The notes: generated by a model not told the origin, from the sequence alone. Positions 29,475 through 61,526 are shown, counted from the first letter of the stretch. The stretch: DNA of 64,000 nucleotides from an uncultured Candidatus Actinomarina sp. (GCA_902619825.1 CACNFT010000003.1:10473-74472), one strand, 5' to 3'. Made by a program: numbers and translations.

Positions 29475-30460
29475 TGAAAAAAGTTATTATCGATGCCGAT
29501 ACTGGGTCAGATGATGCTGTTGCCTTATTAATGGCATACAGAAACTTAGCAAAAGAGAATATATTAGGAGTTACACTCGTCTCAGGAAACGTTCCTCTTG
29601 ATCAGGCTGTTTTAAATACCATTTATGTCAATGAATTATGTGAAGTCGACATACCTATTTATAAAGGTGCTAACAAGCCATTAAATAGAGAATATCTAGA
29701 GGTTTTTGATTCAGAAACTGCAACAAACATTGCTCTAAGTTATACAAATGAGTCAACCTCAGCTCAGCACGTGCATGGTATTGATGGTCTCGGTGATATT
29801 GGGTTAACTCCTATAAATAAGGAAGTAGAAAGCAAAACTGCGGCTGAATTTTATAAAGAGGTTTTGGAAAACGAAACTGATTTAGAAATAGTAACTTTAG
29901 GTCCGTTAACAAATATTGCGAATATGATTGAAAAAAATAAAGAAAGTCTAGATTCAATAAAACATATTTACATAATGGGTGGAAGTTCAAATGCATTGGG
30001 TAATGTTACAAAATTTGCGGAATATAACTTTTGGGTTGATCCAGAAGCAGCAGATATAGTTCTCAATGCGGGAATACCTACAACAATGATTGGCTGGGAT
30101 CCTTCTTTATACGATGCAATGATTGACATAAATAAGATAAATGAAATTGAATCTTTAAATACAAAATTTTCTAAGTTTACAAATGATATTCAAGTTGTTT
30201 TAAGAGAAATGATGAAAGAATTGCTTAATCAGGATGCATATGATCTTCCTGATCCATTAGCTATGTCTGTATTTTTAGATGAAACGATAATTAGCCAATC
30301 AGCAGAAGCAAATGTAAGAGTTGATTTTCGTGATGGAATGACCAGAGGAGGATGTGTTATAGACTACATGAACATTGAGCCTGAAACACACAAGACAAGA
30401 ATTGTACAAAGGTGTAATCCTGATAAGTTTTTTGAATTATTAAAAAGCAGCTTAGTCTAG
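29474..30460 (+). CDS. iunH: nucleoside hydrolase (inosine-uridine preferring family)
   Basis: N-terminal aspartate cluster IIDADTGSDDAVALLMA (the DxDxxxDD motif of the IU-NH family). Confidence 0.85.
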   Translation: MKKVIIDADTGSDDAVALLMAYRNLAKENILGVTLVSGNVPLDQAVLNTIYVNELCEVDIPIYKGANKPLNREYLEVFDSETATNIALSYTNESTSAQHVHGIDGLGDIGLTPINKEVESKTAAEFYKEVLENETDLEIVTLGPLTNIANMIEKNKESLDSIKHIYIMGGSSNALGNVTKFAEYNFWVDPEAADIVLNAGIPTTMIGWDPSLYDAMIDINKINEIESLNTKFSKFTNDIQVVLREMMKELLNQDAYDLPDPLAMSVFLDETIISQSAEANVRVDFRDGMTRGGCVIDYMNIEPETHKTRIVQRCNPDKFFELLKSSLV

Positions 30461-30464
30461 TCTA

Positions 30465-31412
30465 TTATTCTTCTTTATCTTCAGATTCAGTCGAATCTTT
30501 GTTTTCATCCTTGAACAATTCTGAAATTGCTCCAATACTGCCCAAAGTTGCAGATAGATCTGCTGGCAAAAATATTTTTGTAGCATTTCCATCAGCAACT
30601 TTTTCAAGAGATTCTAGATATTTTATTGCTATCAAATCGTTTGAAGGATCACCTTCATGAATTGCATTGAAAACTTTTAATATAGCCTCAGCTTCACCTT
30701 CTGCTGTAACTACTCTTTCATACTTTTCAGCATCAGCAACTTGTTTTAATGCTTCAGCTTCACCTTGAGCACTTAAAATTTGTGACTCTCTTTCACCTTC
30801 TGCTGTCAAAATTGCAGCTCTTTTTTCACCTTCAGCTTCGGTAACAGCAGCTCTTCTATCCCTTTCAGCTTTCATAACTTTGTTCATTGCATCTTGAACA
30901 TCTTGAGGTGGATCAATTCTTTGAATTTCAACACGAACAACTCTAGTACCCCACTTATCTGTTGCTTCGTCAAGGATCAATTTTAAAGATGTATTAATAG
31001 TCTCTCTTGAAGTTAAAGCAGCATCTAATTCAAGATCACCAACGACATTTCTTAGGTTGGTTTGTGCTAATTTTGTTGCTGCAGTGATAAAATCTCCGAC
31101 GTTATATACAAGTTTTTTAGGATCAGTTGGTTCATAATAAATGACTGCATCAACAGTAATCGTTACATTGTCTTTTGTAATAACTTCTTGTGGTGGAACA
31201 TCGATAACTTGTTCCCTCATGTCTACAATGATTAATTTTTCAATCCCAGGAATTACAATGTTGAGTCCTGCGGTTGCCTCTCGATTATACTTACCAAATC
31301 TTTCAACTAATCCTTTCTCGAATGGTCTTAGAATTCTAAATATTCTGAATGCAATAAAGATTACAAGACCAAATAATATTACGCTTCTTACAATTGATAA
31401 TATAAATTCCAT
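30465..31412 (-). CDS. SPFH/band 7 (stomatin-prohibitin-like) membrane protein
   Basis: N-terminal TM followed by an SPFH domain and a coiled-coil Ala/Glu-rich region. Confidence 0.8.
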   Translation of the reverse strand: MEFILSIVRSVILFGLVIFIAFRIFRILRPFEKGLVERFGKYNREATAGLNIVIPGIEKLIIVDMREQVIDVPPQEVITKDNVTITVDAVIYYEPTDPKKLVYNVGDFITAATKLAQTNLRNVVGDLELDAALTSRETINTSLKLILDEATDKWGTRVVRVEIQRIDPPQDVQDAMNKVMKAERDRRAAVTEAEGEKRAAILTAEGERESQILSAQGEAEALKQVADAEKYERVVTAEGEAEAILKVFNAIHEGDPSNDLIAIKYLESLEKVADGNATKIFLPADLSATLGSIGAISELFKDENKDSTESEDKEE

Positions 31413-31453
31413 ACAACAATTCTATTCATGAAAGAGATATACGCTAATCGAGA

Positions 31454-31822
31454 TTAACTATTTGTTTCTTCTGTGTCTTTTTCTTCTTGTTCGTATCTAT
31501 TTAGAGCAAGCATAAACATAATAAAAAGTATTAAAGATCCGACAAAATAAGTAATTGGAATAATTCTTATTTCTAGAGCGTTTAGACCATCTATTGATGA
31601 TGGGGCTGGGCCCCTAGGAGCATAAAGTATAAACAGAAATGAATTAATAACTAGCCAACCAAAAGTTGCAGCTCCAACAACAAGGAAGCCAAGTCTTCTA
31701 CCTAAGTTTGTTGCGTTCAAAATAAAAGTTGATCCAAAAAATGAGAGAACAAAAAAAACAAAAAGAAAAATTCCTGTAAATGTCAAATTAGATGACAACA
31801 GGGTTCTCATTATTTCACGCAT
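31454..31822 (-). CDS. small membrane protein (3 TM), possible accessory subunit of the respiratory complex
   Basis: 122 aa. Its start overlaps the stop of the cytochrome c gene by 8 nt, suggesting translational coupling. Confidence 0.4.
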   Translation of the reverse strand: MREIMRTLLSSNLTFTGIFLFVFFVLSFFGSTFILNATNLGRRLGFLVVGAATFGWLVINSFLFILYAPRGPAPSSIDGLNALEIRIIPITYFVGSLILFIMFMLALNRYEQEEKDTEETNS

Positions 31823-33239
31823 CAGGTGTCATTCCTCTCAAATAATCTATAACCAATTCTATATCTGACTGTGGAAGTACCGCACCAAATCCTGGCATTT
31901 TTCCACCACCAACTCCATTAACTCCATAACCTTTACCATTGACAGAACCATTAATAATAAAATCGATAAAGTCATCTCTCTCTTTAAACTGAATGTTTAC
32001 TCGTCCACCTTTTAATGCAGGGCCTAAACCTCCAGAGCCAATTGTTTTTGTATATGCAGCTCCTGCAGAGTATCCAGCAGTGTGACATCTCGCACAATAT
32101 GCATTAAATATTCCTACTGCTCTTGTTGCTTTGTCATAATCTCCATCAAAAGTTGAATCTGCAATATCTTGAAAATCAATAAGCCATAATTTTTGTTCGT
32201 AGGCATTTTCAAGAAATGCTAAACCTTTTTCTGCTTCCTGCATAAATTTGTCATAACCATCAGTAAGTATTCCTAGATTAATAACACTCGTTTCGAGATC
32301 AGAAAGATATCCTCTAACAACTGATGCATCTTTTCTTCCTGGAGTTGATTCTTCTTCATCTGGGTTTAGATTTAAAATTGCAGTACCCAAAATATCTGCA
32401 ATACTTTCACTGTAAACTGATATATCTGTTTCTACTGAATCAAAAAGTCCATCTTCATCGGTATCGATTCCGTTCTGCCTTGCTAGGATGGCAGAAACAA
32501 TTTCAACAGCTTCAATTGCAACAGGTAATCTTTCCGGAGCCAACATTATGTTATTGATAAGTTCATTTTGTTTGTTTATCTCACTTTCAACTTGTAAATC
32601 GGAGTTTTCAATGCGTAACAAAGATGAATTTATATTTTGTTCAATTTGTTGAAGTTCCTCACTTTGTGGAATTTGAAAATAATGCAAATACTCTATCAAA
32701 TCGTCAAGCTGTCCATCATTCATTGGACCTCCACCTTTAAGACCCCAAGCTGGCATAGGTGAGTTTGCTCTACCGTATATAAGCCAATACCTAACTTCAT
32801 CATCATCATATCTATAAAATACATTGTTTATTGCAGGGGCTACCCATGTAACACTTACACCACTTCTTTTTTCAACATATGAAGCTGCTCCTCCACTACC
32901 ATCTACTCCATGGCAGTTTCCGCAGCCAAACTCTTCATAAAGATGATGTCCTCTTTCAACTGAAACATCGTCAAACTCTTCTACAAAACTCTCTTGTCGA
33001 GCTGGTTCACCGAGATAATAAAGTGGGATCATAATTGTAAGTAAAGAAGCTAGGACAACTGCTATTGATAATGTTTTATCAAGATGAGTGGTCTCTAATT
33101 CATCATCTGGAAGATATTTTTGTAAATTTCTTGGTACTTTTTTGATTTTTCCTGCACCACGAAAACCAACTGCGGAAAAATAAGCTATTGCCCCAACAAC
33201 AGCTAAGGCAATTAATGTTATGAAAAATGAGCTGTTCAC
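31815..33239 (-). CDS. membrane-anchored diheme cytochrome c (QcrC-like)
   Basis: Two CxxCH sites (CGNCHG and CARCHT). N-terminal TM. Lies directly downstream of the Rieske gene. Confidence 0.75.
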   Translation of the reverse strand: MNSSFFITLIALAVVGAIAYFSAVGFRGAGKIKKVPRNLQKYLPDDELETTHLDKTLSIAVVLASLLTIMIPLYYLGEPARQESFVEEFDDVSVERGHHLYEEFGCGNCHGVDGSGGAASYVEKRSGVSVTWVAPAINNVFYRYDDDEVRYWLIYGRANSPMPAWGLKGGGPMNDGQLDDLIEYLHYFQIPQSEELQQIEQNINSSLLRIENSDLQVESEINKQNELINNIMLAPERLPVAIEAVEIVSAILARQNGIDTDEDGLFDSVETDISVYSESIADILGTAILNLNPDEEESTPGRKDASVVRGYLSDLETSVINLGILTDGYDKFMQEAEKGLAFLENAYEQKLWLIDFQDIADSTFDGDYDKATRAVGIFNAYCARCHTAGYSAGAAYTKTIGSGGLGPALKGGRVNIQFKERDDFIDFIINGSVNGKGYGVNGVGGGKMPGFGAVLPQSDIELVIDYLRGMTPDA

Positions 33240-33241
33240 TT

Positions 33242-34120
33242 TTATTCCTCAGTCTCTGCAATCGTAATACACGAAAGTCCTTGTGGATATTTCACAGACA
33301 TACCACCAGCACGTGGTGATTCGATGACTGATCCAGTGTCAATAATTAATTTTCCACCCGAAACACTTACAATAAATCTATCTAAGTTTCTTGGAGCGGG
33401 GCCTGCATAATACTCCCCAACCATGTTGTATTTCGAACCATGACATGGACATTCAAATCCTTGAGAAGTGTTACACCATGGAACACGACAGCCTAAATGA
33501 ACACATCTTTGATAAACAGCAACTAAACCTTCTGCAATGGTTCCACTATCAGAAAACTGAGAGTTACCATTATCATCAAATGGTAAGACGTAAGCTCTTG
33601 CTTCTGGAATGAATGCAGGAATAACTGAACCATCTGATTGAAAAATTTGGTTTTTAAGATCATCAACTCTTCCAGCATCTATTTTAGATCCAAAACCTCC
33701 GGAAACTTTTGGATAAAAGAATCCAAGCCAAGAAATTAATTGGATACCAGCAAATGCTCCAAACGTTATTCCAAGAGCTTTACCCAAAAATTGTCTGCGA
33801 GTCATTCCAGCTTCTTCCTCTGAAATTTCTTCATAAATAATTTCTTCTTTTATAGCAATGGATCCATCGGTTTGAATTTCTTCTTCCTCTTGTTCATCAT
33901 CTTCGGATACGTTTTCTTCTTCAAAATCTGGTTCATCTGGAGCTAAAAAATTTGTTTGAGATTTATCAACTTTTAAAGCTTTTTTGTCTAAATTCTTTTT
34001 CCAATTTAATCTTTTTGTTACAGCCTTTGGGGTTCTTCCAGTTACTACAGCTGCAATTCCAATTACACCAAATACACCAATAAATGCGATTGCAATAAAT
34101 GAAAGCTCAACAAGAGTCAT
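33242..34120 (-). CDS. Rieske [2Fe-2S] iron-sulfur subunit with N-terminal TM, acidic linker and internal twin-arginine motif
   Basis: Rieske boxes CVHLGC and CPCHGS. TRRQFLGKALG Tat motif around residue 107, preceded by an extra TM helix and an E/D-rich segment. Confidence 0.85.
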   Translation of the reverse strand: MTLVELSFIAIAFIGVFGVIGIAAVVTGRTPKAVTKRLNWKKNLDKKALKVDKSQTNFLAPDEPDFEEENVSEDDEQEEEEIQTDGSIAIKEEIIYEEISEEEAGMTRRQFLGKALGITFGAFAGIQLISWLGFFYPKVSGGFGSKIDAGRVDDLKNQIFQSDGSVIPAFIPEARAYVLPFDDNGNSQFSDSGTIAEGLVAVYQRCVHLGCRVPWCNTSQGFECPCHGSKYNMVGEYYAGPAPRNLDRFIVSVSGGKLIIDTGSVIESPRAGGMSVKYPQGLSCITIAETEE

Positions 34121-35031
34121 TCGAAATGGACCCAGTCAAGTAAGTCATCGAACCATACACCATCAATCCATGGATAAGTCCAGTTCCAACCTGGGCCTCT
34201 AAATAAAATACCTATAAGACTTAATGTTCCAGCACCTGCAAGAAAAAAGGTCCACAACATTATTGCATACTTTCTTTTTGAAGGCTTATTTTCTTTATTT
34301 CGATCAATATATGGAATTGCCATAAATGCTGCAACACCAATTAGAAGAGGTATCATCACACCTGCGATCTGTGGATCCCAATAGGAGAGTAATTCTTGTA
34401 ATCCTAAAAAGTACCATGGTGCTTTTGCAGGGTTTGGTGTAATATTTGGATTTGCTTCTTCTAATAAAGGAGCTTGCAAAATTGCACTTATAAAAATCAA
34501 AAACGCTGTCATTGCCATTAATGAAATAAACTCTGGCAACATTAGATGAGGCCATGTGTTTACTTTATCAACTGGTTCAGAAGTTGGTTTTTGTATTGGC
34601 TTTGCTTTGACTACTGTAAGCAACCTTTGTGTTACTTTTGTCTCAGGAGCAAAATCTACTTCGGTAGGTACCTGTCCATTTGATTTTTCAGGTGCAGGAG
34701 CTGGTGCTTCTTTGACTGCAGACGCTGCTGCTGGTGTTTCTTTGACCTCAGCTGCTGGTGGCGCTGTTTCTTTGACTTCAGCTGCTGGTGGTGGTGTTTC
34801 TTTGACTTCAACTGCTGGTGGCGCTGTTTCTTTGACCTCAGCTGCTGGTGGCGGTGTTTCTTTGACTTCTACTTCAATTGGAGTAACTTCAATTACATCT
34901 GGTTCTTTCTCAATTTTGGTAGGTTGTACTTCACCTCTCATTTCAGCCAGAGCTTGTTCAACTGAAATACCTAAGGCCTTGGCTCTTGCTTCTGCAGTTT
35001 TTAATAATAAATGTTCTGGAATATCAACCAT
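34117..35031 (-). CDS. cytochrome b C-terminal half (b6f subunit IV-like) with N-terminal helical module and a Pro/Ala-rich repeat linker
   Basis: C-terminal NPNITPNPAKAPWYFLGLQELL matches the conserved P-E-W-Y region of cytochrome b / SUIV. The N-terminal ~40 aa (LLLKTAEARAKALGISVEQALAEM) are hydrophilic. Contains 5x AEVKETPPPA repeats. Confidence 0.75.
   Translation of the reverse strand: MVDIPEHLLLKTAEARAKALGISVEQALAEMRGEVQPTKIEKEPDVIEVTPIEVEVKETPPPAAEVKETAPPAVEVKETPPPAAEVKETAPPAAEVKETPAAASAVKEAPAPAPEKSNGQVPTEVDFAPETKVTQRLLTVVKAKPIQKPTSEPVDKVNTWPHLMLPEFISLMAMTAFLIFISAILQAPLLEEANPNITPNPAKAPWYFLGLQELLSYWDPQIAGVMIPLLIGVAAFMAIPYIDRNKENKPSKRKYAIMLWTFFLAGAGTLSLIGILFRGPGWNWTYPWIDGVWFDDLLDWVHFE
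34711..34870 (-). repeat. about 5 tandem copies of a 30-bp repeat encoding AEVKETPPPA inside the SUIV-like gene
   Basis: The unit TTTGAC(C/T)TCAGCTGCTGGTGG(C/T)G(C/G)TGTTTC recurs at 30-bp periodicity. Confidence 0.85.
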
Positions 35032-35037
35032 ACATAT

Positions 35038-35817
35038 CTATAGAGGACCTGAGATCCCTCCATCCTTTCTTACTCGCCAGAAATGAATTGCCATAAAAAT
35101 TACAATGATGAAAGGAAAAAATAGAACATGTAAAACATAAAATCTAAGAAGTGTTGCTTCAGTAGCTTCTAGTCCTGCAAATAAGGCAAACTTTACTTGA
35201 GCACCAAAAACAGGAGTGTATCCTGCCATATTTCCACCAACTGTCACAGCCCAAATTGCTAACTGATCCCATGGAAGTAAATAGCCAGTGAATGAAAGTA
35301 AGAGTGTAAGAATTAATAATATAACTCCAATCACCCAGTTAAACTCTCTAGGTGCTTTGTACGCCCCATGATAAAAAACTCGAGACATGTGAAGAAATAC
35401 TACTAACACCATGATATGGGCCGCCCATCTGTGCATATTTCTAACAAGTGATCCAAATGCAATACTTGTCTGTAAAGATTGGATATCAACATACGCCATT
35501 TCTGTAGGCCTAAAGTAAAACATTAACCAAATACCAGTTATGGTCAAAACAATAAAAGTAAAGAAACTTAATCCTCCAAGACAAAGGGTGTATGATAACC
35601 TCACGCCATGTCTTTTTACTTTTACTGGGTGAAGGTGATATAAAACATTGTTCATAACAACATAAGATCTGTTTCTTGGGCTATCGGAATAGCCTTTCCT
35701 AAATGGAGAACCAGGTCTAAAAATACTTCCCCAAAGCGTGCTTTCTTTAAGCGAATCACCAAGACCAGAACTTATGTCTTTTAATCTATCTTTAAATTTA
35801 ATTTTTTCGTTTTTCAT
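35038..35817 (-). CDS. cytochrome b N-terminal half (b6-like), heme-binding
   Basis: 4 TM with His pairs as in cytochrome b (VRNMHRWAAHIMVLVVFLHM ... HFWRV). Confidence 0.8.
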   Translation of the reverse strand: MKNEKIKFKDRLKDISSGLGDSLKESTLWGSIFRPGSPFRKGYSDSPRNRSYVVMNNVLYHLHPVKVKRHGVRLSYTLCLGGLSFFTFIVLTITGIWLMFYFRPTEMAYVDIQSLQTSIAFGSLVRNMHRWAAHIMVLVVFLHMSRVFYHGAYKAPREFNWVIGVILLILTLLLSFTGYLLPWDQLAIWAVTVGGNMAGYTPVFGAQVKFALFAGLEATEATLLRFYVLHVLFFPFIIVIFMAIHFWRVRKDGGISGPL

Positions 35818-36272
35818 TAAAGTCTTCCATATATATAGCCATGACGGTCACTTCTCTCTCCAGAGTCTTCATCCCATGGAGATTCATAAACACCATTCTT
35901 TATTGCTGCATCTGCTAAAGATCCAGCAAACTTACCAAGCGATATAACCCCTGTTGGGCACCTATCAACACATAATGCACATCTTGTACAAGCTTCTTCA
36001 TCTACAACAAAGAATCCCGTTTCATTATCTTCCATGTTAGGAGCTTCCACATTTATAGAGTCTTCTATAGCGTCTGTTGATAAGTAATGTATGCACTTCC
36101 ATGGACAGATATCTACACATCCTTCACATAAAATGCACTCTGCCTCATCAATATGTAAAAACTGTTTTGGCCTTACTCTTGAAGAAACCTTTTCCGCGTC
36201 TACCATCGCTAAATTGTATTTTTTTTCAAATTCAGGCATTTCAATAAGTACTTCTGATTTAGCCATCAGCAC
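35817..36272 (-). CDS. 2[4Fe-4S] dicluster ferredoxin-domain protein encoded within the Rieske/cytochrome b operon
   Basis: CILCEGCVDICP and CTRCALCVDRCP motifs. Its stop overlaps the cytochrome b6-like start codon. Confidence 0.75.
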   Translation of the reverse strand: MLMAKSEVLIEMPEFEKKYNLAMVDAEKVSSRVRPKQFLHIDEAECILCEGCVDICPWKCIHYLSTDAIEDSINVEAPNMEDNETGFFVVDEEACTRCALCVDRCPTGVISLGKFAGSLADAAIKNGVYESPWDEDSGERSDRHGYIYGRL

Positions 36273-36852
36273 CTACCTTCACGACTTGTTTTCCATAATC
36301 AGAAACTCTAGTTTTTCCTCTTTCTTTTGCTTCGTTGATATCTTGAATTAGATACCCTACTACAAAAGCTGTCACTAATGCTCCACCTGATATACCAAGT
36401 TGAATAATGTCTTTCAGAGCTCCGAGGCTCATTCCTATTTCGTTACCTAAAAATAAAATTGGAGGAAAGTTGATAAACTCTCTTTGATTTGTCCATTCAA
36501 GAGGTCCTTGAGAAAGGTTTAACCACTCTGAAGGCAATACACCAAATATAAGTGCAAATTGTATCCAACTAAGAAATGCGAGATATGTTGCTCTGGCCCA
36601 AGTTAATTCAGAATCTTGCCATGCAAGCATTGCCATTCCGATCAATAGAAATTGACCTGCACCAAAAGCAATGAGTTGCCCGATGGTTTGCATTAGCCAT
36701 CCCCTAGGCATCCAATTAAAATAATCGATTACTTCGCCTTCTGGAAATCCAGCGAAATGTGCAATAATTACTCCAATTGTTATGCCACCTACTCCAGCAA
36801 AAATTAAAGCAACTCCGATTTTGTATCGGTTAATAAATATAAAATTTAACAA
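36259..36852 (-). CDS. hypothetical integral membrane protein, first gene of the Rieske/cytochrome b operon
   Basis: 197 aa with ~5 TM. Overlaps the ferredoxin gene by 14 nt. Confidence 0.45.
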   Translation of the reverse strand: MLNFIFINRYKIGVALIFAGVGGITIGVIIAHFAGFPEGEVIDYFNWMPRGWLMQTIGQLIAFGAGQFLLIGMAMLAWQDSELTWARATYLAFLSWIQFALIFGVLPSEWLNLSQGPLEWTNQREFINFPPILFLGNEIGMSLGALKDIIQLGISGGALVTAFVVGYLIQDINEAKERGKTRVSDYGKQVVKVGADG

Positions 36853-37021
36853 GTTTCCCTCAACACGTTATATACTCAAAACCTTCAATATCTATTCTAT
36901 CAAGGATTACCTAGATATTATAAATTTTATAACCCAACTTTTTCAAAAAATTACTAATTTTATTGGAGTAATTTCTATGGTTTAATAGTAAAGTCAAATT
37001 GAGTACTTACTTTTTAAATTA

Positions 37022-38425
37022 ATGAGAATAAAAATTTTTCCAAAAAATGAACAAGCGTTTTCAAAATTTTTTATTGTTTTAACTCCACTTTTTTTGCTTC
37101 TTTTAGGAACTATTGCATTAACGAAAGAGGCTTATTTCATTTTTGCAGCCATACTCCCTCAAAATAGTTTTCTCAATAGTGGATATTTAGAAAAACTAAA
37201 TAACCATATAACTTACAATTTGATGCTTTCATTTTTAATTGTGTTTTTGACTGTTTACTTATTACCAAAAACACTTGGAAGAAAATTAATAATATTCCCA
37301 ATTTTTTTTCTAACTTCATTAGGAGTTATTGGATTGGAGTCACTTGATCTATTATTAGGAATATTATTTCCTAATAGTTTTTTGTTCTTTGGAAATACTA
37401 GTTATACATTAATTTTTAAAATTTTAATATTTTTTGCCTTTGTTGGACTCATTATTTTAAATATATTGGCCAAAAAAGAAGCTTCTCTGTTTGTTAGTAG
37501 TCAGTATCTTTTTGGTGCAAGTATTTTTTATTTGATATCACTTCTAATTTATAGGGCTGATTTTGTTGTATTTAGCGACAATTTTTTCATTAATTCAATG
37601 TATGTTTCAACACATATATATGTCGGATATTCGTTCGTATTTCTATCATTACTTCATTTCATGATTACAAAAGGTATAAATGCTACGTTATACAGTAAAA
37701 CATTAGGATCTATTGGATTTTGGGGATTCTTGTTTCTTATTCCTTGGTCAAATTTTAAATTTTACTTTGGTTCTGTATTGCCAAATTGGATAGAAAATAT
37801 ATCTCTTTATTTGTCTATGAGTTTGTCTCTCCCACTGCTTGCTATAGCTGTAAATTTCTTCAGAACGGTTTCAACGAGAATTGAGGAAAATAAAGTAATT
37901 TATAGTCTTATAAGTTTCTCGTTTGGGATATTTGTTATAACAAATATCTTTCAAATTGTGTCCTCGCTCTCAAATATCATTCCCATATTGAGTCTTACAA
38001 ATTTTGAGATAGCAATTAGATATGGATATGTTTTCAGTGCAATATTAATTACAATCTCGTTTGTTTATTATCTGATTCCTAAAATCTTTGGAAGAGAAGT
38101 CAAATTTTCAAGGCTTGAATCTTTAACTAGTTTTCTATTAAAACTTGTGGTGTCTTTAACATTATTTTCTAATGCTTTAATCGGAATTATTTCTGGTTAC
38201 TCATGGAATGCTGGTGCCAATGCAGGAAACCCAACAATCTATGGTGAAGGGTTCAGTTTATTGTGGTCACTAATCAGTACTCCTTTAACGCTAAATATGT
38301 TTTTATCTTTGACATTACTTCTGCCATTTCTGTTGTTTTTCATTTCAGTCGTCAAGGCTGTAGTAAATGGAGAAATTACAGAAGCAGAAACAATTGAACT
38401 TACTGAAGAGGAGCTTCCAGTATGA
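37022..38425 (+). CDS. polytopic membrane protein (about 12 TM) of unknown function, first gene of a cytochrome c operon
   Basis: 467 aa. Overlaps the next gene by 4 nt. One segment (VYYLIPKIFGREVKFSRL) vaguely recalls a cbb3 CcoN helix, but the His metal ligands are absent. Confidence 0.45.
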   Translation: MRIKIFPKNEQAFSKFFIVLTPLFLLLLGTIALTKEAYFIFAAILPQNSFLNSGYLEKLNNHITYNLMLSFLIVFLTVYLLPKTLGRKLIIFPIFFLTSLGVIGLESLDLLLGILFPNSFLFFGNTSYTLIFKILIFFAFVGLIILNILAKKEASLFVSSQYLFGASIFYLISLLIYRADFVVFSDNFFINSMYVSTHIYVGYSFVFLSLLHFMITKGINATLYSKTLGSIGFWGFLFLIPWSNFKFYFGSVLPNWIENISLYLSMSLSLPLLAIAVNFFRTVSTRIEENKVIYSLISFSFGIFVITNIFQIVSSLSNIIPILSLTNFEIAIRYGYVFSAILITISFVYYLIPKIFGREVKFSRLESLTSFLLKLVVSLTLFSNALIGIISGYSWNAGANAGNPTIYGEGFSLLWSLISTPLTLNMFLSLTLLLPFLLFFISVVKAVVNGEITEAETIELTEEELPV

Positions 38426-38620
38426 GTGAACTCTTAAGTAAAGTTGCTGAATTATTAAACGCGCCAGAATCATTGGTGCAACGATCTGCTGAAGCAAGAG
38501 CAGAGGCCTCTGGAAGAACTGTAGATGAAGTTTTACAATCCTGGGCTGGAGGAGAGTCTGTGGCTGCTGCAGAAAAACCTGTCGAAGAAACACCTCCTGT
38601 GGAAGAAGTGGCACAACCTA
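38422..38620 (+). repeat. 199-bp perfect direct repeat, copy 1 (5' end of the first cytochrome c gene)
   Basis: Identical to 39236-39434. The antisense shadow ORFs 38345-38614 and 39210-39428 encode the same peptide, which confirms the identity. Confidence 0.9.
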
Positions 38621-39243
38621 TAGAGAAACCTGTAGAAACATCAGAAGAGGAAAAAGATGAAGAACAAGAATCAACTGAAGAATCATCAATTGTTTTTGAT
38701 GAAAATGTTTCTGAATTGATTACGGAGGTATTAATAGAAGAAGAAAATGTTGCAGTAAAAAAAGAAAGTTCGATTGGATTTATTGCCGGTGTAATTGGAG
38801 TAGTTGTCTTTACATACCTATTTGCTTTCTCAATACCAAAACAACAAAGCGAGGAATTAGTCAGACAATCTTTAAATAATTCAATTCAAGTTAGTGATGA
38901 TATATTAAAAGGAGCAATTGTGTATAACCAATTAAATTGTCAATCATGTCATACACAAAATGTAAGAATACTTATTCCTGATTCACAAAATGGAAAAATA
39001 CTAAAAAATCAACTTGCAGATAAAAATATTATAGAAAATACTGGGTTACTTAGATTAGCTACTGACCTATCAACATTTGGAAATAGGGAGCCAATAAACC
39101 AAAAAGCATGGCTACAAAGATATTTAACTCAACCTTCCTCTGTAAGAGAAGAAATACCCCATCCATCAGTAAATTTCCTTACCGATCAAGATTTAGATTA
39201 TTTGATAACTTATTTATTATCTTTAGGAAGTACAAATGAGTGA
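38422..39243 (+). CDS. membrane-anchored mono-heme cytochrome c with N-terminal cytoplasmic helical module
   Basis: CQSCHT heme site, one TM (IGFIAGVIGVVVFTYLFAF), and an N-terminal 66 aa identical to the next gene. Confidence 0.7.
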   Translation: MSELLSKVAELLNAPESLVQRSAEARAEASGRTVDEVLQSWAGGESVAAAEKPVEETPPVEEVAQPIEKPVETSEEEKDEEQESTEESSIVFDENVSELITEVLIEEENVAVKKESSIGFIAGVIGVVVFTYLFAFSIPKQQSEELVRQSLNNSIQVSDDILKGAIVYNQLNCQSCHTQNVRILIPDSQNGKILKNQLADKNIIENTGLLRLATDLSTFGNREPINQKAWLQRYLTQPSSVREEIPHPSVNFLTDQDLDYLITYLLSLGSTNE

Positions 39244-39434
39244 ACTCTTAAGTAAAGTTGCTGAATTATTAAACGCGCCAGAATCATTGGTGCAACGATC
39301 TGCTGAAGCAAGAGCAGAGGCCTCTGGAAGAACTGTAGATGAAGTTTTACAATCCTGGGCTGGAGGAGAGTCTGTGGCTGCTGCAGAAAAACCTGTCGAA
39401 GAAACACCTCCTGTGGAAGAAGTGGCACAACCAG
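39236..39434 (+). repeat. 199-bp perfect direct repeat, copy 2 (5' end of the second cytochrome c gene)
   Basis: See copy 1. Confidence 0.9.
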
Positions 39435-40186
39435 TTGATGAAAAAAAAGATGTAGAGGAACCCAAAGAAGAGTCTGTAGAAATAATCAAGAATGAGAGCG
39501 AAAAATTACCAACTGTATCTTCTCAAACAAATATAAAAAAAGTTATACAAAAAGTATCTTTTGCAAATAAGACATTGGATATAAAGGTAAATGCGGAAAC
39601 ATCTTTGCCGAGATGGCTAAATTTTAGTTTTGTATTTATTCCTCTCTTTATTGTTATTGGGATAATCAATACATCATCGACACAAGAATGTGGGGAGAAT
39701 GGAATTTTAGATGTTGATCGAAAAACTCAATTAACTGTGAATTGTGATGGATCGCCATTTGAAGGTAAAGGTGTTGGATCTGCAAGCTCAATAAACTATA
39801 TCGCACTTGGACAACAAGTTTATTCTGGCGCTGCTGCTTGTGCTGGTTGTCATGGAGTAAATGGTGGCGGCGGGGTAGGTCCTGCATTTACAGGTGGAGA
39901 GCTTTATACAACTTTTCCAACTTGTAGTGATCATGCATTGTGGATTGAACTTGGTTCTGCAGGTTGGCAGGCTGAAATTGGACCCGCATATGGAGCAGAG
40001 AATAAAGTATCAATCGGCGGAATGCCCGGATTTGTAGGAAAACTTACTGAAGATGAGATTTACGCAGTTGTGGTTTTTGAAAGAGTAGTATTTGGTGGTG
40101 GAAATACTGACGAAGTACTCGAAGACTGTGGACTTCTTGAAACAGATGAGGAAATCACTACAGAAGCTATTGAGCCAACTGGTTAA
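39236..40186 (+). CDS. membrane-anchored mono-heme cytochrome c, paralog of the upstream gene
   Basis: CAGCHG heme site, one TM, and the same N-terminal 66 aa module as the previous gene. Confidence 0.7.
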   Translation: MSELLSKVAELLNAPESLVQRSAEARAEASGRTVDEVLQSWAGGESVAAAEKPVEETPPVEEVAQPVDEKKDVEEPKEESVEIIKNESEKLPTVSSQTNIKKVIQKVSFANKTLDIKVNAETSLPRWLNFSFVFIPLFIVIGIINTSSTQECGENGILDVDRKTQLTVNCDGSPFEGKGVGSASSINYIALGQQVYSGAAACAGCHGVNGGGGVGPAFTGGELYTTFPTCSDHALWIELGSAGWQAEIGPAYGAENKVSIGGMPGFVGKLTEDEIYAVVVFERVVFGGGNTDEVLEDCGLLETDEEITTEAIEPTG

Positions 40187-40314
40187 ATAATCACAAAAAA
40201 TCAAGTTGATTGTTATAAGATTCAAACTATTATTTTTTTATGTTACCTGCAATATATATTCATATATTTTTAATCGCTTTTAGCATTGTTCTCTTTTACG
40301 TTGTTTTATAAATT

Positions 40315-40761
40315 ATGGCGAAAAAGAAACGAGAGAAAAAAGTTGTTGGCTGGAAAGAACAAGTTGCTTTACCTGATTTAAAAATAAAAAGTGTAATTGC
40401 AAAAATTGATACTGGAGCAAATTTAGCAACAATTGATGCTGCTGATATTAAGTTTGTTACGAGAAAAGATGTAAAGTACGTAAAATTTACTGTTAAAAAA
40501 AGAAACAACACCGTTAGAAAAACTTCCGCTCCCCTTGCAGGATTTAAAAGAATAAGAAGTTCCAACGGAGATGTTGAAAAAAGACCGTATATAAAAACTG
40601 ATATCTTAATGGATGGAATTACCAAAAATATTGAATTGACTCTTACTGACAGAGGCCCCATGGATTACACAATGTTAATTGGAAGAAAAGCTTTGGGAAG
40701 AAGATGGATTGTAAATCCCTCAATTAGCTTTTTGACAAAACCCAAAAGAAATACAAAATGA
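40315..40761 (+). CDS. RimK-associated retropepsin-like aspartic peptidase (ATP-dependent zinc protease/DUF785 family)
   Basis: KIDTGANLATIDA aspartyl-protease D-T-G-A motif. Overlaps rimK by 4 nt, the conserved pairing. Confidence 0.65.
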   Translation: MAKKKREKKVVGWKEQVALPDLKIKSVIAKIDTGANLATIDAADIKFVTRKDVKYVKFTVKKRNNTVRKTSAPLAGFKRIRSSNGDVEKRPYIKTDILMDGITKNIELTLTDRGPMDYTMLIGRKALGRRWIVNPSISFLTKPKRNTK

Positions 40762-56691: not shown

Positions 56692-58638
56692 TTAAGAATG
56701 GAATTTATAAATATTTACATTACCTTTTGAAAAAATTAGACTACCACAATCACTATCTTTATCTATTACTACAAAAAAAATATTAGAAAAGTTTGCAAAT
56801 TCTGCACAGTCCCCACCATAGAAGTTTCTTAGTTTGTCAATTCTTTCTCTCCAAATTGATATATCTCGGATGTTATAAGCATTGAATTTCCATGTAGCGT
56901 AGGTTGGCACCTGAGTTTCGTATTCAATAAAATTAAGTGTGCTTTTCATAGATGCACTATCGTATAAAGGCAATAGTAAAATATCAATCTCATTTTCTGA
57001 TACAAAATCAAGTATTTCTGAGTCAATTTTTGTATTTAACTCGTCGAAATAATAATCATTTTGAACATTAGTGAATCCTTGTAGAAAAACAAAAAGTGAA
57101 ATTACTATTGAAACAAAATTTAATACGGGTATATTTTCATTTGAAATATATGAACAAATAAAAAGATAAAAGAAGATTAAGAAAACAGATCCAATTCTAA
57201 AAGGAAATAGCATAGTAAATTGGCTAAATGGAAAAATAAATACAATTAACAAATAAATCCAAAAAATAATTGAAATAAAAATAGAAATATCTAATAGTTC
57301 ATTCTGAGTATTTAGTTTTAAACGAAAATAAAACAGAAAAAAAAGAATTGAAGCCATCACTGCAATTCCAAAAATCCACTGATCATTAATAGTAATGAGA
57401 TTATCTGAATACTTATCAAATGGATAAAGATGATGTGGGGCTCTTACTTTAATCATATTTATTAGATTTGAATTAATTAAATCTGAGTCAATGGACATAT
57501 TTGAAAATAAGTTTTGTCTCATTAGATTAATTATTAAAGGTAAAGAGAGTAAAAAAGAAACAAAGTTAAAGGTTAAAATATTTTTTAATTCAAATTTTTT
57601 CAGTTGTATATAAATATATACAGGGAAAGTAACAATCGCCACAGATGCATGAAAATAAAGGGTGAGTAAGTAAAAAAAACAGGACCATAAAAGATTTCTT
57701 TTATAACCAAATATAAAAGAAGTAAGCAAAGATAAGTAAGCAAATACTTTACCTTCAACAGAACCAAAATAAAATTCTCCACTTAGAATTGATTGCTGCC
57801 CAATTAACAATATAATTAAAAAAATTGATGCACCTAAATTAATTTTAAAATTATATGTAAATTCTCGAACAAGAATGGCAAACCAAACACAAATAATAAT
57901 CTCTAATATAATTTTGAAGCTATCACCAAACAAAAGGTTTGAATATTTAACGATAATATTGAACAAATATAAATGTGAATCACCAATATATGCTGAGTAG
58001 GGAGAGTTGTCTACAATTGCATGACCAAAATAAGTTAGTTCGTTAAGTGTAATATTTTGATTTAGTACATCTGATAAAACACCAGCAACTAATAAATAGA
58101 AAATAATACTTAAACTCTTTGATTCTGATAATGCAGAAAAAATATAATAAATAATAATTACTTTAAGTAAGAGCCAAAGTAAACCATTCCACGTAAAAAA
58201 GTAATAGTCATATATAAGCGATAAAAGTATTGAATTAATTGAAATCAAAAAAATTAGCCTAGACTTTTTAATATTATTTATATTTAGATAAATCAAAGTA
58301 AAAATTAGTGTGTTTGTTAGCACCTCAAATCTTTTGCTAGAGCTGGTTTCAACTATTATTCTTTTTTCCTCAACAACTAAATTATTTATTGTTCCCAAGC
58401 AAAAGAAATTGCTTACGTTTGGAAAAACGCTTATTGGTTTATTTACGATTTGAATAAATTCTTCTGGATAAAGATTTTTATATGAAACTACATCATGTAT
58501 ACATCGATCTTGTGTTTCAAATTTAAAATTGACATCGTTATTGAAGTTTGTATTTTGAATTTTCGTAAATGTTAAAACAATCAAAAAAATAACGCATATA
58601 TAAAGTAGTATTTCGTTAGATTTTTTGTTTATCAACAT
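56692..58638 (-). CDS. large integral membrane protein with a C-terminal soluble domain, candidate GT-C glycosyltransferase
   Basis: 648 aa with about 14 TM followed by a ~150 aa hydrophilic C-terminal domain. Confidence 0.4.
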   Translation of the reverse strand: MLINKKSNEILLYICVIFLIVLTFTKIQNTNFNNDVNFKFETQDRCIHDVVSYKNLYPEEFIQIVNKPISVFPNVSNFFCLGTINNLVVEEKRIIVETSSSKRFEVLTNTLIFTLIYLNINNIKKSRLIFLISINSILLSLIYDYYFFTWNGLLWLLLKVIIIYYIFSALSESKSLSIIFYLLVAGVLSDVLNQNITLNELTYFGHAIVDNSPYSAYIGDSHLYLFNIIVKYSNLLFGDSFKIILEIIICVWFAILVREFTYNFKINLGASIFLIILLIGQQSILSGEFYFGSVEGKVFAYLSLLTSFIFGYKRNLLWSCFFYLLTLYFHASVAIVTFPVYIYIQLKKFELKNILTFNFVSFLLSLPLIINLMRQNLFSNMSIDSDLINSNLINMIKVRAPHHLYPFDKYSDNLITINDQWIFGIAVMASILFFLFYFRLKLNTQNELLDISIFISIIFWIYLLIVFIFPFSQFTMLFPFRIGSVFLIFFYLFICSYISNENIPVLNFVSIVISLFVFLQGFTNVQNDYYFDELNTKIDSEILDFVSENEIDILLLPLYDSASMKSTLNFIEYETQVPTYATWKFNAYNIRDISIWRERIDKLRNFYGGDCAEFANFSNIFFVVIDKDSDCGSLIFSKGNVNIYKFHS

Positions 58639-58785
58639 AAAAAAGCTTTTGTAAATAGCCTAGTAATAAAATCCAAATAGTTTTAGCAAGTAATAAATAG
58701 TTAAATTCACTCTTAAATTTTTTGTAAATGCTATTTAGTTAATAAAGAATTTATTTTTTAAAGTGTAATTATAATTATCGAAGTA

Positions 58786-60213
58786 ATGAGAATTGTAAAC
58801 CTGTTTAAGAGTAATTTATTAATTATCCTTATATTTTTGCCACTTCTAGCAAATTTGTTGAATAATATTTTTCAAGATAGTGATATTATCAGCAATTTAT
58901 CATATGTAAATTTAGTCAACTTTTTATCAGTATGTTTGGGTTCTGTTTTTTATTTAAATTTATTTATGAAAATAAATAAATATTTGAAAATTCAGTCAAT
59001 TACGTTGACTTCCTTATTTTTTTTAATAAGCTATTTTTTATTCGACTCAATTTTTGTTTTTCTTTCTAAAAATTTCTCGTTTTCAATTAGTTATTTAATA
59101 GTCAGTTCTTTATGGTTACTAATTCTGATTTTTAAGAAAATTAAAATACTTGATATAAGTAGCATTGGTCTGACATATTTTCTATTTCGATATTTTAATC
59201 ATAAATATTTTGATATCTTATCAAATAATTTAAAATATCAAGAGCTTAACTCAGATGTCCCTTATCAATGGAATCAAATTGTTAGTATGATTTACAATGA
59301 AAATTATTTTTATTCATTAACAAATAATCCTATTAGCGGTCAAGGTTTACTTCTTAGTCATATTCAGGCTTTGTTGTTGAAGATAAACTTTGATACTGAA
59401 AATTTTATTTTTATCAAAAGTAACTATAATTTAATAATTTTTTTCAGTCTTTTATTTATTTTTGATCTTGACATAAAGAAAAAAAATAAAGTAATTTGTT
59501 GCTTGTCTTTTATATTGATTCTCATTAATAATGACTGGCTTTATTATCTTATAACAAATTCTCTTATGTTGGAGGGCCTTGCCAGTCTTCTGTTCGCAGT
59601 ATTTACCTATTATTTCCTTCAATTTTTAACAACTAAAAATAGGGCATCTAAATTCTTCTTTTTATGTTTTGGAAGCCTTGTACTTTCAAAAAATTTTATA
59701 ACTTTAATTGTGTTTTTTTTAATGTTGACGTCTTTATTTTTTTTAAAGAAAAATAAAGACGTAATATATGCTTTTATACCCTATATTTTTTATTTGACAT
59801 ATCAAAGAATATATTCAGCAGAGGTTCAAACTTTTGCATATACAAACGAAATAGATTTTAATAAATTATTATTGGATCTTTTTTATCTTCGCAATCTTGA
59901 ACTTCAAAATATTCTAAATATTTTAAAACAATTTTTAATAGATAAACCAACTAGTTATTTATTTATATTATTTTTCTTAACTAGTGTTTATTACATTTCA
60001 AAATCATCAAAAAGATTTAGTTTCATACAATTAAGCTTCATAATCGTCATATTAAATTACTTACTAGTAAATATACTTTACGTGTCCTATTGGCAAAATG
60101 TAGAATACGAATCTTCATATCGATACATAATAAATACTTTTCATTTAGTTTTTATAACGTTATGTATAAATTTAAATTATTTTGAAGTGTTATCTAAAAA
60201 TAAACGAATTTAA
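58786..60213 (+). CDS. large integral membrane protein of unknown function
   Basis: 475 aa with about 12 TM and extreme AT-driven composition. Confidence 0.4.
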   Translation: MRIVNLFKSNLLIILIFLPLLANLLNNIFQDSDIISNLSYVNLVNFLSVCLGSVFYLNLFMKINKYLKIQSITLTSLFFLISYFLFDSIFVFLSKNFSFSISYLIVSSLWLLILIFKKIKILDISSIGLTYFLFRYFNHKYFDILSNNLKYQELNSDVPYQWNQIVSMIYNENYFYSLTNNPISGQGLLLSHIQALLLKINFDTENFIFIKSNYNLIIFFSLLFIFDLDIKKKNKVICCLSFILILINNDWLYYLITNSLMLEGLASLLFAVFTYYFLQFLTTKNRASKFFFLCFGSLVLSKNFITLIVFFLMLTSLFFLKKNKDVIYAFIPYIFYLTYQRIYSAEVQTFAYTNEIDFNKLLLDLFYLRNLELQNILNILKQFLIDKPTSYLFILFFLTSVYYISKSSKRFSFIQLSFIIVILNYLLVNILYVSYWQNVEYESSYRYIINTFHLVFITLCINLNYFEVLSKNKRI

Positions 60214-61526
60214 TTTTTAGATTGAATCAATTTTTCAATATTGAAAACCAATATAAGAAAAGTAAAAGTCAAAAAACAATAATATAAAGTTTTACTTAGA
60301 AAGAATAAAAAAAGTTCAACAATATTATTTTCAAGCGACGTGCCTACAAAGTATTGAAGAGGAATTACCGCAAAGGTAATTAAAAATAGTAAAGTCATAT
60401 TTTTATTCAAGAATTTAAATACTGCTAAAAATAATAAAATGTTTAAAGAGAATTTATAGCCATAATTAGAGTAGGAATTTATAAAAATTGAAAGAAATGA
60501 AAATATTATTATCAATAGTGAGTCTTGAGTCTTCCACTCTTTAATTTGAATCTTGAATATAGATGAATACAATTTTTGTCTTAAGATAAATAATGAAATT
60601 AAAAATATGGACAAAGAGGTAATAAATATATATAAATACACTGTATTTATCGACTCTAAAAGAGTGAGGTCGTGGAAGAGACCAAATGTATTAACTTTTG
60701 ATATTGGACTAGGAACTGAAATATTGAGTGAGTTGTAATACCACAAAAGTACAACCGTATTAATTAAAGATACAATTGTAATTTTTTTTATATTTTCATA
60801 ATCTTTGCTTATCAATTTATAGACTATTACACCAAATAAGATAAAAATTGGATAAATTTTAAATAGTGTAAGCAAAGTCAAGAAAAACATATATAAATTG
60901 CTAGCTAAAAATTTTTCGTTTTTGAATAAAATCAAGAAATAAAAAATAAAAATAATGTCATGATTTAATGTTTGAAATAAAAATAGGAATGGTGGAAAGG
61001 TAATCAATAAATTTAAGAATAAAAAATTGTTATTTTTTTGTTTATAAATTAAGTAAATCATAGTTGAGAAAGTAATAACAAATATAAAGATAGATGATGT
61101 CCATGGATTTAATGTAATATTAAATTGCCTTGCAAAAGGGCCGTAAATGTATTCTGAAAACGGACCAAAGCCCAATGAAATACATTCCATTTTTTCAGTA
61201 GTAAATTTATAGGTGTAATGTAGGCTCCAATCAACCTGGCAATTTAACTTAAATAAAAATAGTTGCATATCCCAAAAAATTGACTTATTTTGATGTATAA
61301 AAATTGTGATGATTCTTAGTAAATAAAAAAATATTGGAAAAAATTTTAATAAGTTTACATTAGTTTTAGTCAACCAATTTTTATTTTTAGAGTTAAATAA
61401 GTAAATAAAAAATAATATCGATATCAAAATGAAATACTCATAAAAAAAATTACTGAGTAAATACAGACAAGCAATAAAAACCGTAGCTACCGTACTCAAT
61501 TTGAAAATTTTTAACTCATTAATCAT
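60210..61526 (-). CDS. large integral membrane protein (O-antigen ligase/polymerase-like topology)
   Basis: 438 aa with about 11 TM. Convergent 4-nt overlap with the previous gene. Confidence 0.4.
   Translation of the reverse strand: MINELKIFKLSTVATVFIACLYLLSNFFYEYFILISILFFIYLFNSKNKNWLTKTNVNLLKFFPIFFYLLRIITIFIHQNKSIFWDMQLFLFKLNCQVDWSLHYTYKFTTEKMECISLGFGPFSEYIYGPFARQFNITLNPWTSSIFIFVITFSTMIYLIYKQKNNNFLFLNLLITFPPFLFLFQTLNHDIIFIFYFLILFKNEKFLASNLYMFFLTLLTLFKIYPIFILFGVIVYKLISKDYENIKKITIVSLINTVVLLWYYNSLNISVPSPISKVNTFGLFHDLTLLESINTVYLYIFITSLSIFLISLFILRQKLYSSIFKIQIKEWKTQDSLLIIIFSFLSIFINSYSNYGYKFSLNILLFLAVFKFLNKNMTLLFLITFAVIPLQYFVGTSLENNIVELFLFFLSKTLYYCFLTFTFLILVFNIEKLIQSKN

Follow-up and report, generated by a model that had tools for sequence, protein, structure and literature searches.

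This study concerns a seven-gene operon on the minus strand (31454-36852) of a 64,000-nucleotide stretch of DNA from an uncultured Candidatus Actinomarina sp. (GCA_902619825.1 CACNFT010000003.1:10473-74472). The whole stretch is called the window, and positions are counted from its first letter. The operon encodes a b6-type quinol:cytochrome c oxidoreductase of the APWY clade, which is the standard complex III of the class Acidimicrobiia. Its second gene encodes a ferredoxin-type protein with motifs for two [4Fe-4S] clusters. With a probability of roughly 55%, this protein is a stable iron-sulfur (Fe-S) subunit that sits on the cytoplasmic (n) side and connects heme bH/ci with carriers in the cytoplasm, with inward electron flow as the favored direction.

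Results

Gene order and transcription signals

Seven consecutive and tightly packed open reading frames (ORFs) were read on the minus strand between 31454 and 36852. They are listed in 5' to 3' order, with the number of transmembrane (TM) helices and the supporting matches, and are followed by the promoter candidate.

36259..36852, minus strand: M197, a 197-aa membrane protein with 4 TM helices and without a known family (ORF, TM prediction)
35817..36272, minus strand: 2x[4Fe-4S] ferredoxin-type protein, 151 aa (two CxxCxxCxxxCP motifs, Fer4 families)
35038..35817, minus strand: cytochrome b6, 259 aa, the 4-helix half (PF00033, 2.3e-42)
34117..35031, minus strand: subunit IV, 304 aa, 3 TM helices (PF00032, 5.8e-07; ExtQ, 6.5e-14)
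33242..34120, minus strand: Rieske [2Fe-2S] protein, 292 aa (PF00355, 1.6e-07; PetC-type NCBIfam, 5e-22)
31815..33239, minus strand: membrane-anchored diheme cytochrome c, 474 aa (PF13442, PF00034; CGNCH at 106, CARCH at 382)
31454..31822, minus strand: M122, a 122-aa protein with 3 TM helices and without a known family, the last gene (ORF, TM prediction)
36917..36946, minus strand: candidate sigma-70-like promoter, TTGAAA-18-TATAAT (consensus match, 11/12)

These genes had been proposed in a first-pass annotation made from the sequence alone. All seven ORFs are present at the coordinates given there, and their domains and motifs agree with the named products. The motifs had also been called correctly: two CxxCxxCxxxCP in the ferredoxin (C46 and C95), CVHLGC...CPCHGS and an internal RRQF resembling a twin-arginine translocation (Tat) motif in the Rieske protein, and two CxxCH in the cytochrome c. 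In hidden Markov model (HMM) searches against Pfam and NCBIfam, a check of the kind that it had proposed, five subunits obtained family matches, and the 197-aa and 122-aa proteins obtained none.

The junctions, in operon order, measure -14, -1, +6, -4, +2 and -8 nt. Almost all of them had been described as overlapping; this holds for four of the six, and the other two are short gaps (+6 and +2). The overlap amounts to 1 nt between the ferredoxin stop and the cytochrome b6 start, and to 4 nt between the genes for subunit IV and Rieske. The M197 gene has a TTG start behind a GAGGGA Shine-Dalgarno sequence. The true start of the ferredoxin, as judged by its homologues, is probably the ATG at 36266, two codons downstream, which would give a protein of 149 aa.

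The promoter candidate, a consensus match only, lies upstream of M197 in a divergent intergenic region of 169 bp and is the top-scoring site in 30300-40400. In the promoter and terminator scan of this interval, no convincing internal terminator was found across the seven-gene array. A promoter or terminator belonging to the ferredoxin gene had been named in the first-pass annotation as evidence that would separate it from the complex; the scan found no internal promoter and no convincing terminator.

Cytochrome b6, subunit IV and the class of the complex

Cytochrome b is split after helix D into separate genes for b6 and the 3-TM subunit IV. The closest PDB match of b6 is cyanobacterial b6 (4e-45, vs 1e-24 for actinobacterial QcrB). 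The NCBIfam model ExtP gave 287.9 bits against a cutoff of 290, with the match starting at residue 54. The heme-b ligands H129, H143, H230 and H245 are 100% conserved and are placed in b6 IHRW/LH motifs. C79, within TLCLGG (CxGG), is 99% conserved and aligns to Cys35 of M. laminosus b6 (query 76-259 vs chain 32-215). Heme ci is predicted to be covalently bound via C79. A cytoplasmic N-terminal extension of about 50 residues is also conserved and lies outside the ExtP profile match. The N-terminal NNVLYHLHPVKVKRHG of b6 is invariant and carries three histidines, H61, H63 and H70 (99-100% conserved).

In subunit IV, KAPWYF, with the APWY Qo motif, is invariant in 68/68 sequences. The combination of invariant KAPWYF, split cytochrome b and the CxGG cysteine indicates membership in the APWY clade, an assignment made by motifs and the split b. 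This clade was described by Kao and Hunte (2014) as having a split cytochrome b, APWY in place of PEWY, and a CxGG heme-ci motif (PMC4122944). It is spread over Deltaproteobacteria, Chloroflexi, Nitrospirales, Planctomycetes, some Firmicutes and deep Actinobacteria, and Ilumatobacter, a member of the Acidimicrobiia, contributes one of five split actinobacterial cytochromes b assigned to either the APWY or the PEWY-cyt c clade (PMC4122944). No member of the APWY clade had been characterized at the time of description, and the APWY motif is without a carboxylate, which its describers take as a sign of non-standard operation (PMC4122944). A related picture was drawn with a 'green clade' and groups A1 and A2 (PMC3509893). 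The first-pass annotation regarded the operon as an unusual mix of lineage-specific features; the split b, the heme-ci cysteine and APWY together are instead the already published APWY clade (PMC4122944).

Subunit IV has a long cytoplasmic N-terminal extension, which consists of a conserved motif of about 30 aa and Pro/Ala-rich repeats. The Pro/Ala-rich linker (EVKETPPPAA) is encoded by about 6-8 tandem repeats of 30 nt at 34657-34896. Among close Actinomarina relatives, subunit IV is the least conserved gene of the operon (71-86% vs 96-99% for b6). The length of the linker probably varies between strains.

Genes for cytochrome f and PetG/L/M/N were not found in the operon, and the c-type subunit is a diheme class-I cytochrome. 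It contains a long insert between the two heme domains. It had been called QcrC-like, a description that does not hold, as it scored 24 bits with NCBIfam QcrC (cutoff 200) and had no PDB match. An actinobacterial QcrCAB complex was rejected for the operon as a whole, with NCBIfam scores of 116/500 bits for QcrB, 28/275 for QcrA and 24/200 for QcrC against the cutoffs.

The ferredoxin-type protein

The two CxxCxxCxxxCP motifs start at C46 and C95. The eight cluster cysteines have the classical two-cluster arrangement and are invariant over deep divergence. All 9 cysteines and 66 of the 151 residues are at least 95% conserved. The conservation is on par with that of the catalytic subunits and exceeds that of the Rieske protein and the cytochrome c. 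No signal peptide was found on the protein. The family-specific N- and C-terminal segments are conserved, yet they are modeled as disordered when the protein is modeled alone, a combination that fits docking segments.

Only Fer4 domains were matched in Pfam, and no FAD/NAD(P)-binding domain was detected. The PDB search identified FwdF/MvhB-type polyferredoxin modules as the closest solved relatives. A partial and weak match to Fer4_18, a domain of FixG/CcoG, reached 20.4 bits against a cutoff of 27. The protein also resembles the two-cluster domain at the C-terminus of NAD(P) oxidoreductases like GltD/NfnB, which have about 600 aa (E 1e-10 to 1e-12). Via these GltD-like proteins, a link to the anammox-type NAD(P) oxidoreductases was tried, and an association with bc genes could not be established. 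A metagenome scan with one query (P0291) returned only generic GltD-like loci, and no cytochrome b or Rieske genes were present there. Identity as NuoI was rejected (45.2 bits with TIGR01971 against a cutoff of 113.05), and no nuo genes are nearby.

Conservation of the layout across genomes

Related loci were collected via the ferredoxin, which gave 86 loci of the Acidimicrobiia type (L001-L086) and 3 distant loci (L087-L089). The locus comparison was performed by tblastn of ten window proteins against the 86 loci. The order M197, ferredoxin, b6, subunit IV, Rieske, diheme c and M122 is kept in 86/86 loci as far as each contig reaches, which goes well past what chance would produce and is the outcome of the neighborhood comparison suggested by the first-pass annotation. 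M197 is upstream of the ferredoxin in all 86, and M122 was detected in 66. The ferredoxin gene is directly upstream of cytochrome b6 in 89/89 loci, the 3 distant ones included. Among these 89 loci, all of which were found through the ferredoxin, the family has no other gene context. The median junction gaps class-wide are -7, 14, 11, -4, 0 and 1 nt.

At least 561 species-representative genomes encode a relative of the ferredoxin. The relatives are 81-97% identical in Candidatus Actinomarina/OCS155 single-cell genomes and metagenome-assembled genomes, and about 60% identical in Acidimicrobiia of soil, sediment and sponges. Outside Actinomarina, the approximate identities to the window proteins are: b6, 75%; ferredoxin, 60%; M122, 57%; Rieske, 46%; cytochrome c, 42%; and M197, 36%. 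Positions that are near-invariant include all nine cysteines of the ferredoxin, C79 and the four heme-b histidines in b6, the ligands of the Rieske cluster, and the two CxxCH motifs. In tightness of linkage and in conservation, the ferredoxin, M197 and M122 match the catalytic subunits. In a scan of 1.8 billion representative proteins, the ferredoxin family formed essentially one cluster at 50% identity plus a few distant full-length groups. A profile of these distant groups retrieved 2,820 proteins, and the few named ones are labeled 'Actinomycetota/Actinobacteria bacterium'.

The three distant loci (GC content 62-66%) have the same layout, with the ferredoxin about 27-42% identical. Ferredoxin, b6, subunit IV with APWY, Rieske and diheme c are all present. 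A 2-TM protein matches the C-terminal half of M197 (HMM E 1e-7 to 1e-11), and 3-TM homologues of M122 (255-332 aa; HMM E about 1e-9) contain a periplasmic insert. Cytochrome c maturation genes flank these three operons. A gene for a Rex-like redox-sensing regulator (PF06971 + PF02629) flanks the operon in L004-L006 (at about 13.1-13.8 kb) and in L089 (13088-13732). Matches to a Rex operator in the window are at chance level only, with none in 36853-37021.

The layout is therefore not special to one genome, since it recurs in 86/86 loci and in the 3 distant ones. It is standard for the whole class Acidimicrobiia and extends to other Actinomycetota. We agree with the earlier statement that a ferredoxin in a bc-type operon lies outside canonical bc1, b6f and QcrCAB. 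Its suggestion that electrons enter or leave through Fe-S clusters on the cytoplasmic side gains strength from the 89/89 synteny with b6, the tight junctions, the lack of an internal promoter or terminator in the scan, and the 66/151 near-invariant residues.

M197, M122 and the Rieske protein

M197 has no Pfam, NCBIfam or PDB match, and its structural model, with a predicted local distance difference test (pLDDT) score of 69, gave no significant Foldseek match in PDB. Similarly, M122 has no Pfam or NCBIfam family match. Neither protein shows similarity to the CCB, YGGT or CcoG families. The basic C-terminal tail of M197 is predicted to be in the cytoplasm by the positive-inside rule. Because the ferredoxin is without an export signal and this tail is predicted to be cytoplasmic, the ferredoxin is read as an n-side subunit. 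M197 is proposed as its anchor.

The Rieske protein has an additional TM helix at the N-terminus, followed by an acidic linker in the cytoplasm, and RRQF at residue 108 precedes its second TM helix. Within its cluster motif CVHLGC...CPCHGSKY, the cluster ligands, the disulfide residues, S229 and Y231 are invariant, and CPCHGS(K/R)Y is invariant in the homologues. The PDB matches are PetC (9e-15), 9rk4_A (1.8e-14) and 9rk3_A (1.6e-12); the latter two are presumably Kuenenia proteins. The Ser and Tyr signature is read as a sign of high potential (PMC3509893, PMC12954380). Apart from the cluster ligands and the customary disulfide pair, the cysteines C216 and C284 are invariant too and may form a second disulfide.

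A divergent cbb3-like neighbor

Beyond the 169-bp gap, a divergent trio of genes is located on the plus strand.

37022..38425, plus strand: CcoN-like protein with 12 TM helices (PF00115, 7e-11)
38422..39243, plus strand: FixO/CcoO-like monoheme cytochrome c (ORF, Pfam/NCBIfam)
39236..40186, plus strand: third monoheme cytochrome c (ORF, Pfam)

The trio accompanies the operon in most loci, and the CcoN-like/FixO pair is also present in the distant locus L088. This divergent partner operon with its His-less CcoN-like protein was absent from the first-pass annotation.

The CcoN-like protein of the window contains only three histidines, and none of them is conserved. Aligned to P. stutzeri CcoN, the protein has K246/F247 in place of the CuB pair HH and lacks the histidines of GHVHAG. 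None of 54 homologues has a histidine in the columns of P. stutzeri CcoN H257/H258 and H345/H347. The structural motifs FW, LPxW, PKxFGR and GxxxGxxW are kept. With TIGR00780, the protein scored 39 bits against a cutoff of 583. A true cbb3 oxidase was rejected because the ligand histidines are missing and the score is below the curated cutoff. Since no ligand histidine is present, the sequence rules out a heme-copper oxidase of the usual kind, and the protein is probably a scaffold for c-type hemes without catalytic activity. The long and His-richer homologues (637-747 aa) were considered as true oxidases and also rejected. Nine of the ten are natural CcoN-like::FixO fusions with CxxCH near residue 540-650, and 0/10 have a histidine at the ligand columns. 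No description of a histidine-less CcoN was found in the open-access papers searched.

In the Acidimicrobiia loci inspected, subunit IV, the FixO-like protein and the third cytochrome c start with the same motif of about 30 residues, (I/V)PE.L..RSAEA(R/K)A.A.G..V(D/E)..L..(W/M).G. In the window, it is encoded at 34930-35031 (minus strand), 38422-38560 (plus strand) and 39236-39375 (plus strand). The motif has no Pfam match, and in two loci (L023 and L040) subunit IV carries 2-3 copies of it in tandem. Such a shared cytoplasmic handle suggests that both modules may assemble together or use a common partner. Owing to an exact direct repeat of 197 nt (38422-38618 = 39236-39432), the first 66 residues are the same in the two cytochromes c, which suggests a recent gene conversion between the 5' ends of their genes.

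Far from the operon, at about 56700-61500, the window has a very low GC content of 22-26% (about 33% elsewhere) and contains three large ORFs (648, 475 and 438 aa) without a Pfam match. A sugar epimerase gene adjoins this stretch, which is possibly a variable cell-envelope or glycosylation island.

Discussion

Comparison with known systems

The APWY clade and the Geobacter ExtO/ExtP/ExtQ complex share the split b, APWY and CxGG with the window complex, in line with the near-cutoff ExtP score and the ExtQ match. The clade was defined on cytochrome b alone, and no ferredoxin, M197 or M122 partner is mentioned there (PMC4122944). The Geobacter ExtOPQ cluster differs from the window in containing multiheme cytochromes and no ferredoxin, and the conserved N-terminal cytoplasmic segment of about 50 residues in the window b6 lies outside the Geobacter ExtP profile match.

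The closest precedent is found in Kuenenia stuttgartiensis. Its complexes resemble that of the window: a b6-like b and subunit IV with heme cN are joined by a Rieske protein that has the Ser/Tyr signature and by a proposed n-side Fe-S subunit, and the Rieske domain is alike, with the match to 9rk4_A (presumed to be from Kuenenia) level with PetC. The Kuenenia Fe-S subunit was modeled on the polyferredoxin fold class, the same class as the best solved relatives of the window ferredoxin. In the Rieske/cyt b complexes Kuste4569-4574 and Kustd1480-1485, a cytoplasmic Fe-S NAD(P) oxidoreductase co-migrates with the complex (PMC12954380). The AlphaFold3 models place the flavoprotein clusters within transfer distance of heme cN, and the subunit was proposed to take the low-potential electron of quinol oxidation (PMC12954380). 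An extra heme b at the dimer interface, bound by the N-terminal His of cytochrome b, was also predicted by AlphaFold3 (PMC12954380). Of the invariant N-terminal histidines in the window b6 (H61, H63 and H70), one may be the counterpart of this residue. The differences are also clear. Kuenenia has a large FAD/NAD(P) flavoprotein with about four clusters, a cytochrome c with six or eight hemes and a five-TM subunit IV, whereas in the window a two-cluster protein of 150 aa is encoded together with a putative membrane anchor as a protein of its own, the cytochrome c has two hemes, and subunit IV has three TM helices.

Cytochrome b6f of cyanobacteria and chloroplasts and the Firmicute/heliobacterial b6c complex are the closest solved structures for b6, subunit IV and Rieske, and have the split b and heme ci/cn in common with the window complex. 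The heliobacterial complex also has a diheme cytochrome c. Unlike b6f, the window lacks cytochrome f as well as PetG/L/M/N, and APWY replaces PEWY/PDWY. Donation of electrons from ferredoxin to heme cn in b6f is a long-debated hypothesis, with soluble ferredoxin or FNR as the donor, whereas the window encodes the ferredoxin-type protein within the operon itself. QcrCAB of Mycobacterium and Corynebacterium belongs to the same phylum; its Rieske protein likewise has additional TM helices and an internal Tat-like motif, and its cytochrome c is also diheme. It differs by an unsplit QcrB of about 540 aa, another gene order and the absence of a ferredoxin. NuoI/NdhI share the 2x[4Fe-4S] fold class and the position of a peripheral subunit on a membrane complex (TIGR01971, 6e-12; PDB NdhI, 2e-05), but the below-cutoff TIGR01971 score, the lack of adjacent nuo genes and other family-specific termini separate them from the window protein. 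No description of a ferredoxin subunit in bc-type operons of Acidimicrobiia or other Actinomycetota was found in the open-access papers searched.

Proposed electron path and alternative explanations

In the proposed mechanism, the ferredoxin would sit on the n side, held by M197 and the N-terminal extension of b6, and its two [4Fe-4S] clusters would wire heme bH/ci to cytoplasmic redox carriers. With inward flow, reduced ferredoxin-type donors would deliver electrons to the quinone at Qi, which we take to be menaquinone from taxonomic descriptions, so that the complex would double as a ferredoxin:quinone reductase. On energetics, we lean toward the inward direction, because it is exergonic and not opposed by the membrane potential, and outward transfer to an acceptor at -400 mV is marginal.

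Several observations weigh against this proposal. The status of a subunit is deduced from genes and sequence. Modeled alone, the ferredoxin reached a pLDDT of 49, too low for a structure search. The operon contains no flavin or NAD(P) domain and no gene for a soluble partner. The Geobacter APWY-type operon has no ferredoxin, and the loci in this study were all found via the ferredoxin. The invariant Ser/Tyr Rieske signature and the presumed menaquinone are the same features that carry the argument for outward flow in Kuenenia, which speaks against an inward direction. An apparent M197-ferredoxin fusion in one locus (L025, about 8400-9450, a 360-aa ORF) would have been direct support, but it was rejected as a frameshift, probably a long-read indel; the conserved M197 C-terminus runs on in the other reading frame.

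The same n-side Fe-S port could instead work outward, a reading that differs from the proposed mechanism in direction only. Quinol oxidation would then be bifurcated to Rieske/cytochrome c and, via the b hemes, to the 4Fe-4S clusters, with a ferredoxin, a flavodoxin or an NAD(P) reductase as the low-potential cytoplasmic acceptor. We hold this main rival to be possible but unlikely. The invariant CPCHGS(K/R)Y, read as high potential (PMC3509893, PMC12954380), the Kuenenia precedent with its energetic argument (PMC12954380), and APWY without a carboxylate, taken as non-standard operation (PMC4122944), argue for it, as does the kinship of the ferredoxin to the C-terminal 2x4Fe-4S domain of GltD/NfnB-like proteins. 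However, transfer to the n side costs membrane potential, and a Rieske protein at +300 mV with menaquinone at -74 mV would leave about -300 mV, which is marginal for ferredoxin (an estimate from standard potentials). The near-invariant heme-ci cysteine and b6 fit a working Qi site, the absence of an FAD or NAD(P) domain is unfavorable, and bc-gene adjacency of the GltD-like relatives could not be confirmed. The host, an aerobic heterotroph with a streamlined genome and with this complex probably as its sole complex III, also counts against outward flow. By analogy with the membrane polyferredoxin CcoG in cbb3 assembly, the ferredoxin, M197 and perhaps M122 might be biogenesis factors, for example an n-side reductant for heme-ci attachment or for the insertion of some other cofactor. 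We hold such a role to be unlikely, but a serious alternative. It would agree with the strict co-occurrence with a heme-ci-type b6, with the absence of CCB-type heme-ci maturation genes in the loci inspected, with the weak partial Fer4_18 match, and with the cytochrome c maturation genes that flank the distant operons. Assembly factors are usually less conserved and show looser linkage, whereas the ferredoxin is more conserved than Rieske and cytochrome c, and the overlap of its stop with the b6 start suggests stoichiometric co-production. The lack of similarity of M197 and M122 to CCB, YGGT and CcoG also speaks against a biogenesis role.

Two further explanations would remove the electron path altogether. 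The ferredoxin might be bound to the complex without conducting electrons, in a structural or regulatory role as a redox or oxygen sensor or as a tether to the cbb3-like module. Fe-S clusters can sense O2 or redox state, no partner enzyme is encoded nearby, and the N-terminal motif that subunit IV has in common with the FixO-like protein and the third cytochrome c suggests an assembly hub in the cytoplasm. Eight invariant cluster cysteines in an arrangement typical of electron-transfer ferredoxins make such a role quite improbable. Finally, the ferredoxin and M197 might have no functional tie to the bc-type complex and be only co-transcribed with it. Genes without a common function do occur together in operons, but nothing specific favors this explanation here. 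It is very hard to reconcile with adjacency in 89/89 loci, even at 27-42% ferredoxin identity, with the tight or overlapping junctions, and with a family that is never in another context among these loci, so that we give it almost no weight.

The divergent neighbor allows the proposed n-side port to be extended, as a speculation with long odds, to a 'III-pseudo-IV' supercomplex. In this assembly, the b6c complex with its ferredoxin port would be tethered, via the N-terminal motif common to subunit IV and the CcoO-like and CcoP-like proteins, to a catalytically dead cbb3-like scaffold with two c hemes. The ferredoxin port would either inject electrons at Qi or drive the quinol-dependent reduction of low-potential carriers.

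Significance

The APWY cytochrome b lineage is known; in the Actinomycetota form it comes with three conserved extra proteins, taken to be subunits, one of which is a two-cluster ferredoxin. Whether heme ci/cn exchanges electrons with ferredoxin in b6f-type complexes is a decades-old open question that lies behind the debate on cyclic electron flow. Similarly, Rieske/cyt b bifurcation to low-potential cytoplasmic acceptors rests so far on anammox models. The operon offers a natural case, in which a two-cluster ferredoxin-type protein is built into the operon of a heme-ci complex in at least 561 species-level genomes, including cultured Ilumatobacter. Both questions, the exchange between ferredoxin and heme ci and the exit of low-potential electrons, become accessible to biochemistry and cryo-EM.

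There is also a consequence for annotation. Such organisms are routinely scored as having 'complex III' and 'cbb3 oxidase'; the former is atypical and the latter is without the oxidase metal ligands. Counts of cbb3 oxidase in Acidimicrobiia that are based on annotation may therefore be too high. If the supercomplex reading is true, it would represent a new type of respiratory assembly in Acidimicrobiia, including one of the most abundant marine actinobacteria.

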